DNA of 40,397 nucleotides, taken from IMG/VR virus record IMGVR_UViG_2541047757_000012; one strand, given 5' to 3'. This stretch comes from a virus (lineage: Duplodnaviria > Heunggongvirae > Uroviricota > Caudoviricetes). Below, piece after piece: positions 30,474 to 39,663 of the stretch (the first letter of the stretch is position 1; every line of letters starts with the position of its first letter). The notes under the pieces are model-generated. The model was not told the DNA's origin, made no database searches, and saw only the letters and a program-made list of their open reading frames with translations. The position numbers and the translations under genes were made by a program.

Positions 30474-30896
30474 TCAATGCACTACGACAGAATCGCCGGG
30501 CGACCCACCACCGCTGAAATGTGCTTTCCGGTAAACGGCCTGGACTGCATCATCATGCGCATCAATTGCCGTACTCAACGCTTCCTGCGCCGCCAGTAAT
30601 GCACGGCGTTCCAGGGTATCGAAGATGCAGAGTCGGTGACGCAGCTCGCGCGGAAGAATTGCCAGAACCGCAGGGATCAGTTTCTGAATTTTTTCCCTTT
30701 GCGCTTTCGTTTCACCTTTCAACCAACGGTGATAGATATTCTGCTGATTGTTCCAGTCCTTGCCTGGTACAAGGGGCAATTCGCCGCCCCCCTGGCGCAG
30801 ATATTCTTCAGTAATTGCGTTAGCGACCCACGCCTGCCCTTTTTCGGCTGCCAGGGCTAACAACACTGATTCGATGTGCTCATGCCTGATTTTCAT
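30474..30896 (-). CDS. YdaT-like protein
   Basis: 140 aa, MKIRHEHI... to ...VVVH; size and position between the Cro-like and replication genes as in Rac. Confidence 0.45.
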   Translation of the reverse strand: MKIRHEHIESVLLALAAEKGQAWVANAITEEYLRQGGGELPLVPGKDWNNQQNIYHRWLKGETKAQREKIQKLIPAVLAILPRELRHRLCIFDTLERRALLAAQEALSTAIDAHDDAVQAVYRKAHFSGGGSPGDSVVVH

Positions 30897-31135
30897 GAAT
30901 CAACCGCTCCTATGCTGTTTTCGCTATGCTTACCGTCTGGGGGGAATACATCGTCAAGTCCACAATGAGCGCCAAGCCGATTAAGGGTAGAAACAATTTT
31001 TCTGCACTCCTCTAGTCCAGGGGTACGAAAATTTGCTTCGTAATTTGCCAGTCGGCTTTGTATCCACCCTAACTGAACAGCAAGTTGTCTTTGAGACAGC
31101 CCAAGCTGTTTTCGATATGTTGAAATTTTGTTCAT
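30893..31135 (-). CDS. Cro-like HTH regulator (XRE family)
   Basis: 80 aa with HTH LGLSQRQLAVQLGWIQSRLANYE; GGAGG SD; divergent from the repressor across an operator-rich region. Confidence 0.65.
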   Translation of the reverse strand: MNKISTYRKQLGLSQRQLAVQLGWIQSRLANYEANFRTPGLEECRKIVSTLNRLGAHCGLDDVFPPDGKHSENSIGAVDS

Positions 31136-31231
31136 TGAAAACCTCCGATGACAATTTTAAACACACCTTGTGTTATATGGTCAAGCTGTTTTGTGTTTTA
31201 TGTAAATCACGATTCGTGATACAAGGATGCA
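31136..31231. promoter_or_regulatory. Divergent promoter/operator region between cro-like and repressor genes
   Basis: Palindromes AACACAccTTGTGTT (31160-31174) and ATCACGAtTCGTGAT (31206-31220) plus a further TGTGTT half-site. Confidence 0.5.
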
Positions 31232-31651
31232 ATGGAAAAAGAAAACGAAAAAATTGCCGCTAGTAGGCTCAATGACAAAATTGCAATGCGTCTTAAAGAG
31301 CGCAGGCAGAAGCTTGGTTTATCTCAAGGAAAACTTGCTGAAATCTGCGGATGGACGCAATCGCGTATAGGTAACTATGAGGCGGGCAGCAGAAATGTTG
31401 GAGTGCATGACGCTGTCGTATTGGGAAAGGCACTTGGCATATCTCCTCCTGAGCTCCTATTTGGAGAACAGGAATCTTCTGAATTGTGGTTAAATGAATC
31501 CCAACGAAAACTTCTTGAGTTGTTTAACCAGCTACCTGGCTCAGAACAACAACGAATGATTGAGCTATTTGAAGTCCGGCTAAAAGAAATCGATGAGTAT
31601 GTAGAAAAATATTTGAGAGGCAGGCTTAAAGATAATCCCCCACCGGAGTAA
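31232..31651 (+). CDS. Prophage repressor (XRE-family HTH, no obvious S24 peptidase domain)
   Basis: 139 aa with HTH LGLSQGKLAEICGWTQSRIGNYE; divergent to the cro-like gene; terminator follows. Confidence 0.65.
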   Translation: MEKENEKIAASRLNDKIAMRLKERRQKLGLSQGKLAEICGWTQSRIGNYEAGSRNVGVHDAVVLGKALGISPPELLFGEQESSELWLNESQRKLLELFNQLPGSEQQRMIELFEVRLKEIDEYVEKYLRGRLKDNPPPE

Positions 31652-31681
31652 TGATCTTGCTATCACAGTAATATGCCAATC

Positions 31682-31706
31682 AGCCCGCTATCAGCGGGCT
31701 TTTTTG
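31682..31706 (+). terminator. Intrinsic terminator after the repressor gene
   Basis: Stem AGCCCGC/GCGGGCT with 5-nt loop followed by TTTTT. Confidence 0.55.
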
Positions 31707-31734
31707 TACCATCATCATATGACACTCACCACAA

Positions 31735-31776
31735 AACACATTTCGTGTTGACATAAGAAAACGCATTGTGTTTAAT
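31735..31776 (+). promoter_or_regulatory. pL-like early-left promoter with overlapping operator half-sites
   Basis: Perfect -35 TTGACA (31748-31753), 17-nt spacer, -10 TTTAAT (31771-31776); palindrome AACACAtttcGTGTT overlaps the -35 and a TGTGTT half-site overlaps the -10. Confidence 0.5.
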
Positions 31777-31950
31777 AAGCATATCCAAACAACGCCCCAC
31801 CAGAGAACGGCTGGACAATACCTCGAGTTATCCAGCCACTGAACAGGGCTAAGTAGCCAGCCTGAGGCATACGAACATGACGGCAGTTGTTGATTGATAC
31901 AAAGCGCAGTAGATAAAACGTTCCGCCACCCGGCGTTAAGGGGAAAAAAG

Positions 31951-32169
31951 ATGGTTGGTGAAGATCTGGTTGTTATTAACGGTCAATTGTGCAGCAAAGA
32001 TGTGGCAGCCATGCTTATTAGCAAGGTTCTTCCAACTGTGCTGGAGGTCATTGCAGAAAAAGTAAAGGCTGGTCGTCCAGACAAGGAAGTTGAAGAGGCG
32101 GCAAAAACAGTTGTTCATGCCGCTACAGAAGCAATTATTTTGAAGAGCCTAGTTTCGCCCAAGCCTTAA
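31951..32169 (+). CDS. Hypothetical small protein, first gene of the early-left operon
   Basis: ATG at 31951 preceded by AAGGGGAAAAAAG; 72 aa. Confidence 0.45.
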   Translation: MVGEDLVVINGQLCSKDVAAMLISKVLPTVLEVIAEKVKAGRPDKEVEEAAKTVVHAATEAIILKSLVSPKP

Positions 32170-32329: not shown

Positions 32330-32724
32330 CTGAATACCTTATTACTGGTTGTGTGAGAACTCCAGTATACCACCGAGCCTGAAGTGGTAAAAAGACAGGC
32401 GCACAACACGAAGGCGCATTTCCGGTATTCATAAAGAGTCGGTCTTGTCTGTTAAATTTAAATGGTGGGAGTGCGCCTCCGGTTGTAAATAACGACATTG
32501 CTATGTGTAGTCTTTGGCGGCATCAGTTCTACTCCGTGGCTGCCCTGCCGCCCCTTTTTAAAGTGAATTTTGTGATGCGGTGAATGCGGCTAAGCGCACG
32601 CGGCACAGTTAAAAGCATCAGTGTTATGGGTGGATTATCCGGCGTTAATTGTTAACTGGTTAACGTCACCTGGAGGCACCAGGCACCGCATCGACAAAAT
32701 TCATTTGTAAAAATGGAGATAATT

Positions 32725-32946
32725 ATGATTGCTCATCACTTCGGAACTGATGAAATACCACGTCAGTGTGTGACCCCTGGCGATTATGTTCTTCATGAAG
32801 GTCGGACATATATCGCCTCGGCAAACAATATTAAAAAGCGAAAACTTTATATTCGTAGCCTGACTACAAAAACATGCATTTCTGACTGCATGATTAGAGT
32901 CTTCCTCGGTCGTGATGGTTTACCTGTAAAGGCGGAGTCATGGTAA
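32725..32946 (+). CDS. Hypothetical protein
   Basis: ORF with GGAG upstream of ATG at 32725 (track start 32713). Confidence 0.4.
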
Positions 32947-33565: not shown

Positions 33566-36500
33566 ATGAGCACCGATAAACAAGTTTACCCACTGTATTA
33601 CGAAGCAAAAAATGACAAAGTAAGAAAACGTCTCGGTATTAAAGGCGGTTTCTACTGGGCTGAAGCGAAAAAATTATCCATTGCCATCTCCCGTGGTGCT
33701 GTTGCGATTGACGATGCTGGCTACGATGAAGATGACTTTAAAAAACCTGTTCGCGTCAATTTGCCCGTTGTTGATGACCTTCCACCAGAAGGCGTATTTG
33801 ATACGGAATTCTGCAACCGTTACGAAAAAGGCGGGGAAGATGGCATCACAATGGTATTTATCGCGCCCTCATCCTCTGCGCAGGACAAACCAGCCAGCAC
33901 TGACAATACCAATGTTAATGGCGAAGACATGACGGAGATTGAGGAGAATATGCTACTCCCGATTTCCGGTCAGGAGCTGCCCATTCGCTGGCTTGCTCAA
34001 CACGGCAGCGAAAAACCGGTAACGCACGTTTCACGCGACGAACTACAGGCATTACACATTGCACGAGCTGAAGAACTACCAGCAGTTACTGCCCTGGCTA
34101 TTTCGCACAAAACCAGCCTGCTCGACCCACTGGAACTTCGCGACCTCCACAAACTGGTTCGCGACACTGACAAAGTTTTCCCTAATCCCGTTAATTCCAG
34201 TCTGGGATTAATGACTGCTTTTTTCGAAGCATACCTGGACGCTGACTACACCGATCGCGGCCTGCTGACAAAAGAGTGGATGAAAGGAAATCGTGTTTCA
34301 CGCATCACCCGCACGGCTTCCGGTGCTAATGCTGGCGGTGGGAACAAAACCGATCGCAATCCGAATTTAGTACACACCCTCGACACACTGGATGTGGAGA
34401 TTGCAGCAGCCACACTTCCGATGGATTTTAATATTTATGAAATTCCGGGCAGCGTTTATCGTCGCGCAAAAGAAGTAGTCCTGAACAAAGAAAGTCCGTT
34501 CAAAGAATGGTCCGCAGCACTTCGTGCAACCCCGGGTATTCTGGACTATTCCCGCGCCGCTATTTTTGCACTTATCCGAAGCGCACACCCTGAATTTTAT
34601 CACTACCCGGGACGCCTTCAGGGGTATATCAACGCCTATTTGACGGAAACTGATCACGAGAACCCCAGCAAGGAAACTCTCACAGCTGCCCGGCATACGC
34701 CGGAAAAAGATATCCTGGAAGAAATTAACCGCGAGGTGGTTACTGAGCGTGAAACAGAAGAAGAAAAACCACAACCATCTGACGCAATGGCAGGTGAACA
34801 GGCAACAACTGAAACAATGGAACCGGATACAACTGAACATGGCCAGAACGCGCAGTCGCTGGATGCTCAGTCGCAGGTGAGTTCCGCTAACCAAGTAAAA
34901 GTCACCGCTGACGAAGTAAACAAAATTATGCAGGCAGCCAATATCAGCCAGCCTGACGCCGATAAGTTACTTGCTGTATCGCGTGGTGAATTTGTTGAGG
35001 GGATTAGCGACCCTAATGATCCGAAATGGGTCAAGGGGATCCAGACTCGCGATTCTGTGAACCAGAACCAGCATGAATCGGAACGGAACGACCAAAAAGC
35101 GGAACAAAACAGCCCAAATGCGCGACAAAATGAACCAGAAGCGCAACAGGAACCGGAAAAAGTCTGCGCCGCCTGCGGTCAGACTGACGGGGATAACTGC
35201 CCTGACTGTGGTGCGGTAATGGGCGACGCAACATACCAGGAAACATTCGATGAAGAGAATCAGGTTGAAGCTAAGGAAAATGATCCGGAGGAAATGGAAG
35301 GCGCTGAACATCCGCACAAGGAGAACGCTGGCAACCATCCGCATCACGATTACAGTGATGAAACTGGTGAAGCGTCAGCTCCTGTAGCAACTGAAATCAT
35401 GTGGCCGTCATATTTCGAGCCAGGCCGCTATGAAAACCTCCCGAACGAGGTTTATCACTCCGCCAACGGAATAAGCAGCACGATGCTGAAGGATGCCCGT
35501 ATCAGCCTGATGTATTACCACGGGCGGCACATTGCCGGAACTATTCCGAACGAGGAAAGTGATGCACTGCTGCGTGGGCGGATCATTCACAGTTATGTTC
35601 TGGAAACGGATAAATTCGCTGATGAATATGTCATTCCGGTACCGGTTCCTGAATATGTGGTTACTACTTCTAACGAACTGATCGCCATCATTAAAAAACA
35701 CAATGCCAGTCTGCCAGCACTGATGACACCAGAGCAGATGAAAGAGTGGATCGAAAGCTACAACAGCACTCTTATACAGCCACTGTCTGTAAGTGCTGGG
35801 GGCGAAGAAACAGGCATCCTTTACGGTTCGCTTCCGGTGGAATTTCGGCGTATTCCTGAGGGGGAAAAACATACAGCATCAGCAATGAAAGCCTGTATTA
35901 AAGAATACAACGCAAGCCTCCCTCCTCTGTTGAAAACCAGTGGAGCACGGGAGCAGCTTCTGGATCAAATTGAAACTGTAGACCCAGAACTGGCAAAAAA
36001 AGAACGTGCTAAATCTTTGCCTTACAACATCAGTGGCACAAAAGAGCAATTAACCGAAATCGCACGGAAAATTCGCCCGGAACTGGTGACACTGGAGGAC
36101 TGGCAAAAACGCCAGCAAGAAGAAAACGCCGGGAAAACGTTTATCAGTCTGGATATGTATGAACAGGCAAAAAATATTCACGCGGCACTGCAAAACAATA
36201 CCGATGCAGCAAGGCTACTCAACCACCCGGATCGCAAATCTGAAATCAGCTATTTCGGGTTTGATGAAGAAACCGGGCTGGAAATCAGGGTCCGTCCTGA
36301 TATCGAAATCCGGCTGCCATACGAAAGCATTTGCGCTGACGTGAAGTCAGTCAGCCTCGGTTATGTGCGGCAGGAACGACTTAAAGATCGCCTGCACCGT
36401 GAAATTATTGAGCGTGATTATCACCTCAGCGCCGCAATGTATTGCGATGTGGCAAACCTGGACAAATTTTTCTGGATCTTCGTCAACAAAGATGCTGGCT

Positions 36501-36691
36501 ATCACTGGGTGGCTGTCGTGGAAGCCTCGCAGGAACTCCTGGAACTTGGTCGACAGGAGTATCGCCGGACGCTACGCCAGATAAACGAAGCCCTAGAGAC
36601 AAACAACTGGCCAGCACCGATTACCGAAAGTTATACCGACGAATTAAACGACTTTGATCTTCGTCGTCTTGAAGCACTGCATCTGGCTTAA
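33566..36691 (+). CDS. RecE-like exonuclease with long N-terminal extension
   Basis: 1041 aa; C-terminal third has PD-(D/E)xK-like features (...RVRPDIEIRLPYESICADVKSV...); followed by a coupled annealing-protein gene; internal Cys4 cluster CAACGQTDGDNCPDCG and acidic low-complexity region. Confidence 0.55.
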   Translation: MSTDKQVYPLYYEAKNDKVRKRLGIKGGFYWAEAKKLSIAISRGAVAIDDAGYDEDDFKKPVRVNLPVVDDLPPEGVFDTEFCNRYEKGGEDGITMVFIAPSSSAQDKPASTDNTNVNGEDMTEIEENMLLPISGQELPIRWLAQHGSEKPVTHVSRDELQALHIARAEELPAVTALAISHKTSLLDPLELRDLHKLVRDTDKVFPNPVNSSLGLMTAFFEAYLDADYTDRGLLTKEWMKGNRVSRITRTASGANAGGGNKTDRNPNLVHTLDTLDVEIAAATLPMDFNIYEIPGSVYRRAKEVVLNKESPFKEWSAALRATPGILDYSRAAIFALIRSAHPEFYHYPGRLQGYINAYLTETDHENPSKETLTAARHTPEKDILEEINREVVTERETEEEKPQPSDAMAGEQATTETMEPDTTEHGQNAQSLDAQSQVSSANQVKVTADEVNKIMQAANISQPDADKLLAVSRGEFVEGISDPNDPKWVKGIQTRDSVNQNQHESERNDQKAEQNSPNARQNEPEAQQEPEKVCAACGQTDGDNCPDCGAVMGDATYQETFDEENQVEAKENDPEEMEGAEHPHKENAGNHPHHDYSDETGEASAPVATEIMWPSYFEPGRYENLPNEVYHSANGISSTMLKDARISLMYYHGRHIAGTIPNEESDALLRGRIIHSYVLETDKFADEYVIPVPVPEYVVTTSNELIAIIKKHNASLPALMTPEQMKEWIESYNSTLIQPLSVSAGGEETGILYGSLPVEFRRIPEGEKHTASAMKACIKEYNASLPPLLKTSGAREQLLDQIETVDPELAKKERAKSLPYNISGTKEQLTEIARKIRPELVTLEDWQKRQQEENAGKTFISLDMYEQAKNIHAALQNNTDAARLLNHPDRKSEISYFGFDEETGLEIRVRPDIEIRLPYESICADVKSVSLGYVRQERLKDRLHREIIERDYHLSAAMYCDVANLDKFFWIFVNKDAGYHWVAVVEASQELLELGRQEYRRTLRQINEALETNNWPAPITESYTDELNDFDLRRLEALHLA

Positions 36692-37794
36692 TGGAGAACC
36701 TGACCATGCAAAATACCAATATCATCACGACAGAGCAGACACCAAATACCATTTCTGCCAGTAACACTATTTTTAACGTTCAGGCGTTGACGCAACTTCA
36801 GGCAGTAGCCGGGTTGATGTCACAGGCCACCGTCACAGTTCCCGATCACCTTCGCGGAAATCCTGCCGATTGCATGGCAATCATCATGCAAGCCATGCAA
36901 TGGGGCATGAACCCCTACGCTGTGGCTCAGAAAACACACCTGGTAAACGGAGTTCTGGGTTATGAAGCACAACTGGTTAACGCTGTGATCTCTAGCTCAA
37001 GTGCAATTGTAGGCCGCTTCCATTACAAGTACGAGGGAGACTGGGAGAAATGCTCTCGCACCCGAGTGGAGACCGTTAAGAAAACGGCCAAAGGAGGCGG
37101 AATCTATGAGAAAAAAGAAACGATCCCATGTTGGACCAGTGAAGATGAGTATGGTCTCTCAGTTCGAGTTGGTGCAGTTCTTCGCGGTGAAAGTGAGATT
37201 ACCTGGGGAGAACCGGTGTTTCTTTCCAGCGTGATTACGCGTAATTCTCCTTTATGGACCTCAAACCCGAAACAACAGCTCGCCTATCTGGCGTTGAAAT
37301 ACTGGGCTCGCCTTTATTGTCCTGACGTCATCCTGGGCGTGTATACCCCGGACGAACTGGAAGAGCCACAGGAAAAAATCATCAATCCTGTGCCGGTACA
37401 GAATTATAGCGAGGTAAGCGAGCAGCGAACAGAAACCATCGAACAGCGTATTGACGAAGCGTGGATTGATGAATTCCGGCAGCGTGTCGAAAGCGCGGCC
37501 ACGACTGAGGAAACCACTGCATTACGCCAAGAGATAGAGGATCAGAAAAACCAGATCGGCGAATTCTTTGCCGAGCTTAAAGGAAAAGTGGTTCGGCGTC
37601 ATCACCGTCTCAATGCTATTGCCAGTATCGAGAAGATGATAAATGACCTTCCTTCATCAGGTGATCCAGAAGCAGAACAAAAATTTACTGCTCTGGAAAA
37701 TACGCTGAATGCTGCCCGGCCACATCTGGGTGAATTATATGAGGCGTATAAAACGACACTGACAGATATGAAACCAGAATATATCGGCTCCTGA
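36691..37794 (+). CDS. Putative single-strand annealing protein (RecT/Red-beta-like)
   Basis: 367-aa ORF coupled (TAATG overlap) to the exonuclease gene; assignment is mainly by position. Confidence 0.45.
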   Translation: MENLTMQNTNIITTEQTPNTISASNTIFNVQALTQLQAVAGLMSQATVTVPDHLRGNPADCMAIIMQAMQWGMNPYAVAQKTHLVNGVLGYEAQLVNAVISSSSAIVGRFHYKYEGDWEKCSRTRVETVKKTAKGGGIYEKKETIPCWTSEDEYGLSVRVGAVLRGESEITWGEPVFLSSVITRNSPLWTSNPKQQLAYLALKYWARLYCPDVILGVYTPDELEEPQEKIINPVPVQNYSEVSEQRTETIEQRIDEAWIDEFRQRVESAATTEETTALRQEIEDQKNQIGEFFAELKGKVVRRHHRLNAIASIEKMINDLPSSGDPEAEQKFTALENTLNAARPHLGELYEAYKTTLTDMKPEYIGS

Positions 37795-38333: not shown

Positions 38334-38621
38334 ATGGCAATGAATCTTGTGACACTCAAAACGTGGGGAAAACTCAGATATCCGGATAACCCACCATCAA
38401 TATCAACGCTGAGACGATGGGCAAGGAATGGAAACATTTATCCTGCACCTGAACTACACGGGAGGAGTTACAGGGTGGTTCCGGAGGCTTTCTATATCAA
38501 CCCAAATAAGGTTGATACCGATATAACACACCATCAGCCTAATGGGCGACAAGGGAGAGACAGTCCGTTACTGGAGAAGTTAAAACATGCAGCGGAAAAA
38601 ATACGATCCCAATTTGCCTAG
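38334..38621 (+). CDS. xis: Excisionase, lambda Xis-like
   Basis: N-terminal ...VTLKTWGKLRYPDNPPSISTLRRWARNGNIYPAPELHGRSYRVV... parallels lambda Xis; 3' end overlaps int. Second ATG at 38340 has better SD spacing. Confidence 0.7.
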   Translation: MAMNLVTLKTWGKLRYPDNPPSISTLRRWARNGNIYPAPELHGRSYRVVPEAFYINPNKVDTDITHHQPNGRQGRDSPLLEKLKHAAEKIRSQFA

Positions 38622-39663
38622 GAACTTAACATATCGAAGGAGGGACAAAGCATATTACTGGCGCAACCCTCTGACGAAAGAAGAATTTACACTAGGTAAA
38701 ATTTCAAGAAGAGATGCAATCGCGCAGGCAATTGAAGCAAATCATTATATATACAAAAACTACTCTCCTGCTGCCTTAATTGAAAAACTTAAAGGGTTCG
38801 ACTCATTTACTATGGCAGACTGGATTGAACGTTACAAAACGATTCTTATAAGGAGAAAAGTGTCCAGAAATACTTATAAAATTCGGGTAAATCAACTGGA
38901 GACAATAAAAGAAAAATTGGGAGAGATTTTACTGACAGAAATAACCACTCGCCATATTGCCGAGTTTCTTGATTTGTGGATTGAAGGAGGGAAAAACACA
39001 ATGGCAGGATCAATGCGTTCTGTGTTGTCTGATATGTTTCGTGAGGCCATTGTTGAAGGACGTATATCTCAAAATCCAGTAACGCCAACAAGAGCACCGA
39101 AAATAGTAGTTACAAGAGAACGACTGAAACTAAAGACATACAACTGCATCAGGGAGGCAGCAGATCAACTTCCGGCATGGTTCCCATTAGCTATGGATTT
39201 AGCCCTTGTAACAGGACAACGTCGCGAAGACATAACGAATATGCGGTTTAGTGATATTTATGATGATCGTCTCCACATCAGGCAAATTAAGACAGGAATG
39301 ATGATTGCTATCCCCCTGTCACTCAGCCTTCCTGTCGCTGGTCTACGGCTTGGTACAGTAGTTGAACAGTGCCGCCTGGTAAGCCGGGGAGATTATCTAA
39401 TCAGTGCCGGGATTAGAAAAAACAGCCCTGACGGCAGCATTCACCCGGATGGCCTGACAAAAAAATTTGTCGCAGCCAGAAAATTAACAGGTATCCAGTT
39501 CAGTGAAAACCCACCAACTTTTCACGAGATCAGAAGCCTGGCTGGACGATTGTACAAAGAAACATGTGGAGAAGAATTTGCTCAGCGTCTACTTGGCCAC
39601 ACATCGGAGAAGACAACAAAAATGTATCTTGATGAGAGAGAAAAAACGTACTTACTGCTCTGA
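38587..39663 (+). CDS. int: Integrase, lambda-family tyrosine recombinase
   Basis: 358 aa; C-terminal catalytic region ...[11 protein letters not shown]...[18 protein letters not shown] with conserved Tyr; overlaps xis; adjacent to the att region. Confidence 0.9.

Follow-up and report, generated by a model that had tools for sequence, protein, structure and literature searches.

Positions 31682–31780 of the viral contig IMGVR_UViG_2541047757_000012 (40,397 nt; hereafter the window) very probably carry the leftward promoter and left operators (pL/OL) of a Rac-like lambdoid prophage with a short repressor of the DicA/RacR type. The window as a whole is a Rac-like lambdoid prophage with its replication genes on the minus strand, and among annotated sequences it is closest to phages and prophages of the Rac type with dicA/dicC-like regulators, kil and recE. 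Judged by sequence, the region is of the lambda type and is closest to DicA–dicBp of Qin and to the leftward promoter of Rac. The OL–pL design known from lambda, Qin and Rac is repeated here, and what is new is the operator specificity, AACACA-n3-TGTGTT. The parts of the region are:

31682–31705, plus strand: intrinsic terminator of repressor transcription (stem 31682–31700, T-run 31700–31705; terminator scan)
31735–31749: distal operator OL2, AACACAtttCGTGTT, an exact match to AACACN5GTGTT, in repeat family D1 with an OR site
31748–31753, plus strand: -35 hexamer TTGACA (direct reading)
31758–31772: proximal operator OL1, AAAACGcatTGTGTT, a one-mismatch match to AWCACN5GTGWT, also in family D1
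31771–31776, plus strand: -10 hexamer TTTAAT, 17 nt spacer from the -35

The first-pass annotation had described a terminator, TTGACA, a 17 nt spacer, TTTAAT, a palindrome and a TGTGTT half-site, and direct reading and string location found every one of these where it had been placed. The terminator has eight pairs, six of them G-C, and a 3 nt loop followed by the T-run. The -35 begins 97 bp past the repressor stop codon, co-oriented with the repressor gene and reading away from it, in a stretch (31652–31893) that holds no ORF of 40 aa or more on either strand. When both strands of the window were scanned with a sigma-70 weight matrix, using base frequencies of the classical promoter compilations, TTGACA-17-TTTAAT at 31748 ranked second of 564,998 configurations. 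The promoter had been called consensus-like, which holds for the perfect TTGACA and the 17 nt spacing but not for TTTAAT, which carries T at -11, where A is near-invariant. As the consensus promoter scan requires A at this second position of the -10, it did not list pL; it listed no other plus-strand promoter candidate from 31600 to the end of the window. The TT of TTTAAT is supplied by the operator arm TGTGTT, a feature also seen in pR (TTTAAA) and in the Citrobacter promoters described below, and most other immunity types, from our reading of promoter zones in viral contigs, have A at -11 and a spacing of 16–18 nt. An alternative -10, TAATAA at 31773–31778 with a 19 nt spacer, ranked only 636th in the weight-matrix scan. 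With either -10, transcription would start near 31783, in CATATCC (31780–31786). A candidate antisense promoter, TTGGCA-17-GATCAT (31679–31651, minus strand; 9/12 matches in the promoter scan), lies directly past the repressor stop codon and, as it points back into the repressor gene, antisense transcription of that gene is possible.

The motif that overlaps pL recurs on the other side of the repressor gene, where the features are:

30474–30896, minus strand: YdaT/cII-like gene
30893–31135, minus strand: Cro-like gene, 80 aa (Pfam HTH_3)
31154–31184, minus strand: pR-type promoter of the cro-like gene, TTGACC at 31184–31179, weight-matrix rank 1
31160–31220: right operator region, three 15 bp sites 23 bp apart
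31160–31174: OR site AACACAcctTGTGTT, a perfect palindrome
31183–31197: OR site AAGCTGtttTGTGTT
31206–31220: OR site ATCACGattCGTGAT, a perfect palindrome
31232–31651, plus strand: repressor gene, 139 aa, with an N-terminal Pfam HTH_3 match (49 bits)

OL2, which string location also gave as AACACATTTCGTGTT, covers the first two bases of the -35. OL1 starts exactly 23 bp from OL2 and occupies the spacer and the first two bases of the -10. The TGTGTT half-site that had been noted on the -10 is thus present, but it is the perfect right arm (31767–31772) of a complete second operator, whose left arm is degenerate (4/6). On the minus strand, pR reads AACACAaaaCAGCTTGACC-N17-TTTAAA, and its -10 is either TTTAAA at 17 nt (31161–31156) or TAAAAT at 19 nt (31159–31154). 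One operator covers two bases of the -35 of pR, and the spacer is taken up by a perfect palindrome that extends two bases into the -10. Operator placement on pL is therefore identical to that on pR, with 23 bp spacing in both regions. No sigma-70 match in the window scored higher than these two promoters in the weight-matrix scan, and when anchored on one another they are alike at 40/85 positions. OL and OR are 575 bp apart. There are two operators at OL versus three at OR; a third OL operator was sought in register at 31712–31726 and 31781–31795, with no match at either.

The motif is concentrated in the immunity region. Two copies of AACACN5GTGTT are present in the 40.4 kb window, at 31160 and 31735, versus 0.06 expected. 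All three exact matches to the looser AWCACN5GTGWT fall in the immunity region, as do four of the six matches found when up to one mismatch was allowed (31160, 31206, 31735 and 31758). An unbiased repeat search of 31120–31800 returned as its first family 31159–31174, 31734–31749 and 31757–31772. ATCACGattCGTGAT ends 11 bp ahead of the repressor start codon (31232), and near 31206–31231 we saw no good sigma-70 match that could serve as a repressor maintenance promoter; such a promoter may be weak, leaderless or dependent on activation, as the literature describes for dicA and racR. Further to the left, CTGATTTTCATGAATCAA at 30886–30903 has one mismatch to the published YdaT box TTGATT-N6-AATCAA and sits where the cro-like stop codon meets the ydaT-like start codon, which would fit a cII/pRE-like arrangement.

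The C-terminal part of the 139 aa repressor is short and of the DicA/RacR type. Its alignment to the NCBIfam DicA model NF007257 is full length, spanning residues 15–133, and scores 57.2 bits, which is below the curated cut-off of 101. PDB matches (434 repressor, P22 C2 and lambda cI) cover the helix-turn-helix (HTH) only, and no S24 peptidase domain was detected with Pfam or NCBIfam. The Cro-like protein is 45% identical to the repressor over 42 residues of the HTH, and the two have a common recognition helix, GW(T/I)QSR(I/L)xNYEA (WIQSRLANYE in the Cro-like protein), as is expected if both use the same sites. Among relatives the helix tracks the operator: WTQSRIGNYE and WAQSRIGNYE occur with AACACA, WATASRVGNYE with GACAC and WSGSSRIANYE with CTCAC.

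Comparison with these relatives revealed that operators at OR and OL change together, and with the repressor. In Citrobacter relatives, where the repressor is 64–66% identical, AACACA-type operators are found in the same promoter layout. Their OR is AACACAcaaTGTGTT, and their pL, past a terminator of its own, is AACACAtgcTGTGTTGACT-N17-TTTAAA plus a second and a third AACACA site in 23 bp steps, with AACACAtttAGAGTT at the OL1 position. An Enterobacter relative with a 57% identical repressor has GACACR-n3-YGTGTC at OR and OL alike. Other types have (C/T)TCACR-n3-YGTGAG (loci L001 and L009) or a GTAC-containing motif (L002 and L003), again at both OR and OL. In all, five or more further repressor types show a joint change of the OR and OL motifs. 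One of them is RacR, for which a footprinted consensus of TAGGC-n3-GCCTA is published (PMC9638921). Loci of the K-12 RacR type were identified via the O3 string quoted in that report. Five such loci (L131, L125, L033, L084 and L043) carry the RacR consensus at OR and again twice, 25 bp apart, over TTGACA-17-TATAGT at the pL position. The RacR consensus (T/A)TAGGC-n3-GCCTA(T/A) is absent from both OR (31136–31231) and pL (31700–31790) of the window. L002 (NZ_CM135829.1), which is labelled E. coli DH5alpha, was considered as a source of K-12 Rac and set aside, as its operators depart from the consensus published for RacR; the label of this record or its strain identity may be wrong. No pL-type region was found downstream of the repressor homologues in L006 (Raoultella) and L008 (Phytobacter).

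The layout is also found in many other immunity types. Scanning viral contigs for a conserved box in the leader that follows pL yielded at least 120 loci, among which 82 promoter zones were distinct. By our own reading these loci include more than a dozen operator types, in the order terminator, palindromes on a TTGAC-type promoter, leader, and each heteroimmune relative has its own hairpin and T-run at the terminator position. A sister type (L038 and L085) also has TTTAAT. Similarity between the window and prophages with other repressors starts directly past the -10, at 31777–31780, which puts the end of the immunity module precisely at the promoter. This mosaic junction coincides with the position of the third operator in the Citrobacter relatives.

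Within the window's own immunity type, the pL region was found in 194/5426 complete E. coli genomes (153 at a coverage of at least 80%), and the carriers include O157:H7, O145:H28 and O55:H7 strains. The operator specificity and OL/pL layout described here are those of an immunity type present in about 150/5426 complete genomes of this species. Twelve distinct pL variants were collected from genomes and viral contigs, and 9–12 of them entered the variation test. Between 31735 and 31776, only 1/28 positions in the 5 bp operator arms and promoter hexamers is variable, compared with 8/14 of the remaining positions (in the centres of the operators, in the gap just past the -35 and at base six of the weak arm; Fisher p=1.9e-4). 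One of the twelve variants has TTGACG in place of TTGACA, and TTTAAT is unchanged in all of them. The arms of OL2 are invariant while its centre varies, and two changes, C to T at 31744 and G to A at 31763, approach the palindromic consensus.

The first-pass reading of a pL-type promoter occluded by the repressor is borne out, as far as sequence can do so, by the motif and geometry shared with OR, the conservation of arms and hexamers, and the change of operator with repressor type. From these observations we infer how the switch would work, from repressor binding to induction. In a lysogen, dimers of the 139 aa repressor would sit on the two 15 bp operators (consensus AACACA-n3-TGTGTT, 23 bp centre to centre). 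Between them, OL2 and OL1 take in the -35, the spacer and the first bases of the -10, and their occupation would exclude RNA polymerase, with the terminator at 31682–31705 insulating pL from transcription of the repressor gene. Once the repressor is inactivated, pL would fire from about 31783. As a self-cleaving peptidase domain was not detected, inactivation is presumed to go via an antirepressor or a similar route. The transcript would comprise a leader of about 170 nt, a 72 aa ORF, the DicF small RNA and kil, and reading through the DicF terminator would extend it to recE, recT, xis and int. At a later stage these operators are probably also bound by the Cro-like protein.

Other readings of the region account for little of the probability. 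It could be an inactive relic, a paralogous copy of pR/OR that lacks promoter function, with the leftward genes expressed from elsewhere or not at all. The -10 lacks the A at -11 and fails consensus promoter criteria, many Rac-like prophages are cryptic, and pL resembles pR when the two are anchored (40/85 positions). However, the hexamers and operator arms have been held in twelve variants while neighbouring bases changed, the layout has been retained in Citrobacter despite different flanks, and the consensus scan gave no other plus-strand promoter candidate between pL and int. As the sister type has TTTAAT too, this hexamer appears to be maintained rather than decaying, and we consider a relic improbable. 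That palindromes with A/T-rich arms of just 5–6 bp, lying upstream of the predicted start, are RNA hairpins of an attenuator or terminator is the least credible proposal, together with the idea that the whole match is due to chance. Inverted repeats can form hairpins and A/T-rich intergenic DNA does give promoter-like strings, but a motif enriched only in the immunity region (0.06 copies expected), a promoter ranked second of 564,998 and sites in 23 bp register in two regions leave very little room for either.

Only marginally more probable than a relic, and still unlikely, is a real promoter whose sites are mainly bound by another protein (the Cro-like or the YdaT/cII-like one) or whose control is mainly exerted after initiation, by the leader, Rho or the DicF terminator. 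The recognition helix of the Cro-like protein is nearly the same as that of the repressor, a long, conserved and C-rich leader does lie past the promoter, and Rho-dependent termination limits kil expression in K-12 Rac (PMC4150792). Against another main binder, the operator motif changes along with the HTH type of the repressor in relatives, the placement of the sites on both promoter hexamers is classic for occlusion, and in Qin dicBp is derepressed by deletion of dicA but not of dicC. Control after initiation would come on top of repression and not take its place.

The region can be compared with four known systems, of which Qin and K-12 Rac give functional precedent. In lambda, pL lies downstream of the repressor gene and is co-oriented with it, its operators share the OR motif and sit on the -35 and -10 about 23–24 bp apart, and the leftward operon ends in recombination, xis and int genes. 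The window is alike in that pL follows the repressor gene, OR-type operators lie over the -35 and -10, and recombination, xis and int genes end the operon. As the operators are 23 bp apart on the -35 and -10 at both pR and pL, the design mirrors that of lambda. It differs from lambda in having two operators at OL rather than three, a 139 aa repressor with no S24 peptidase match, and a conserved leader in place of an N gene or a recognizable nut site. The operator sequence is unrelated to that of lambda, and in the window a distance of 575 bp separates OL from OR.

In Qin, dicBp follows dicA, is repressed 22-fold by DicA and has been called an analogue of PL with lambda-like operators (PMC10448788). 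The window and Qin have in common a short DicA-type repressor, a divergent Cro-like protein (DicC in Qin), a promoter directly past the repressor gene, operators that resemble those at the divergent promoter and DicF in the operon, and the leader element of the window is shared with dicB-type phages. Repression by DicA, which lacks a site for RecA cleavage, is lifted by the antirepressor Rem (PMC10448788), and this makes an antirepressor route plausible for the repressor of the window too. However, the window's repressor is only distantly DicA-like, its operators are AACACA-n3-TGTGTT rather than the Qin Oc operator TTGTTAGTCATAACTAACAA (PMC3441716), and its downstream genes are kil-recET-xis-int, as in Rac, and not ydfABC-dicB.

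In K-12, silencing racR derepresses ydaG, kilR, ydaE, racC, recE, recT, ralR, xisR and intR (bioRxiv 10.64898/2026.09.06.749655). The gene order of K-12 Rac is that of the window (ydaT-like, cro-like, repressor, leader, kil, ydaE, racC, recE, recT, xis, int), and RacR operator motifs lie on TTGACA-17-TATAGT at the same position. The RacR sites are TAGGC-n3-GCCTA, versus AACACA-n3-TGTGTT in the window, the first ORF is different and DicF is present in the window. The PaaR2/YdaS/YdaT switch of CP-933P in E. coli O157:H7 also has equally spaced palindromic operators (PMC8630535) and likewise combines, in a lambdoid immunity region, a short HTH repressor with the Cro-like YdaS and the cII-like YdaT. 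There, PaaR2 is followed by a toxin-antitoxin pair, the operators (consensus half GTTTAGTAA) are unrelated to those described here, and the published PaaR2 work concerns the OR side and not a pL.

From pL to int, the plus strand is wholly co-oriented. The genes are:

31951–32169, plus strand: first ORF, 72 aa, a hypothetical protein in the annotation of L001
32502–32553, plus strand: DicF small RNA with its terminator (Rfam RF00039, full length, 60.9 bits versus a gathering score of 48)
32713–32946, plus strand: kil (NCBIfam Kil NF008465, 159 bits)
after kil, plus strand: ydaE-like and racC-like genes
33566–36691, plus strand: recE (Pfam Exonuc_VIII)
36691–37794, plus strand: recT (Pfam RecT)
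between recT and xis, plus strand: DUF1187 gene
38334–38621, plus strand: xis (Pfam Exc)
38587–39663, plus strand: int (Pfam Phage_integrase)

The first ORF has no family match in Pfam or NCBIfam, and it is not YdfC, to which it has no similarity. DicF lies between this ORF and kil, within the pL transcription unit, and its terminator is the hairpin at 32536–32551. An STnc100-like stretch on the plus strand at 32543–32732 scores 44.3 versus a gathering score of 47. The RecE-like and RecT-like proteins (33566–37794) are 1041 and 367 aa. Those of K-12 Rac are shorter, at 866 and 269 aa. The promoter had been said to drive the recombination/xis/int operon, and gene order and co-orientation agree with this; however, recET-xis-int are 1.8–7.9 kb further on, behind the DicF terminator, so that transcription to reach them must cross 32536–32551 and further terminators. 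No antiterminator was identified in the pL operon. Neither an N gene nor a nutL site was recognized past the promoter, where the first ORF has no family match and the leader no Rfam match. DicF, the FtsZ inhibitor Kil, recombination by RecET and excision of the prophage would all be under the control of pL, which makes it the place to look should the prophage affect cell division, recombination or excision.

The promoter is conventional, and the part of the region that might yield something new is the leader. Homology to heteroimmune prophages begins at about 31780, extends as far as the start codon (31951) and is lost again at the variable first gene. The features of the leader are:

31780–31950, plus strand: conserved untranslated leader of the pL transcript, about 170 nt (heteroimmune homology)
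31780–31808, plus strand: C-rich 5' part
31809–31815 paired with 31831–31837, plus strand: hairpin with covariation
31816–31830, plus strand: invariant 15 nt loop, CAATAC(C/T)NNGAGTTA
31851–31875, plus strand: invariant box AAGTAGCCAGCCTGAGGCATACGAA, in at least 120 viral contigs
31877–31897, plus strand: mini-ORF of six codons (MTAVVD)
31924–31935, plus strand: G-C hairpin

The leader has been kept across many heteroimmune Rac/Qin-type prophages despite differing immunity regions and first genes, and it is also found in dicB-type phages such as Tritos and 689R5. In 16 distinct variants, 6/7 pairs of the first hairpin have changed on both sides (for example GGCTGGA/TCCAGCC, CACGAAG/CTTCGTG, AACAGGG/CCTTGTT and CAGA/TCTG). 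The covariation score is 0.458, compared with 0.179 +/- 0.032 for shuffles, 0/500 of which reach 0.458, and at most 0.20 for slid controls; as the 16 variants were picked by hand, this is indicative rather than rigorous. The consensus fold of the whole leader is weak (-8.7 kcal/mol, no covariation term) and only the first hairpin is supported. The box ends in a Shine-Dalgarno-like GAGG, and an ATG 9 nt further on is kept in the lambdoid versions. In relatives the mini-ORF has 18 codons or runs into ydfA, and its frame is thus not conserved.

Searching with the leader also returned T7-like phages, in which the hairpin and box (AAGTAGC..GGCATACGAA) lie about 30–90 nt past the first host-type early promoter. 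Five such loci were read (L017, positions 1266–1400, and L140–L143), from Klebsiella (two), Enterobacter, Serratia and Yersinia. The hairpin is present in all five and the box is intact in four, being shortened in Yersinia L143. T7-like phages of Citrobacter and Salmonella were matched as well. T7 itself (L019) keeps only a 19 nt remnant, GGATAAGTAGACAGCCTGA, at +51 to +69 of the A1 transcript (199–217).

The leader was compared with known RNAs: there is no Rfam match at E≤1, there is no similarity to the genome of HK022, which carries put sites and would have pointed to a put-like antiterminator, and the anti-sRNAs AgvB and AsxR map downstream of pR'. Strings from the leader were matched in the literature only as T7 A1 templates. 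We tentatively suggest that the leader could be an undescribed cis-acting RNA common to the N-less leftward operons of Rac/Qin-type prophages and the A1-type leaders of T7-like phages. Such an element may shield early transcripts from Rho-dependent or intrinsic termination, or recruit a host factor. The T7-like versions lack the ATG, and after the hairpin they carry GCGGTAG, a sequence similar to the ops (RfaH) core and absent from the version in the window.
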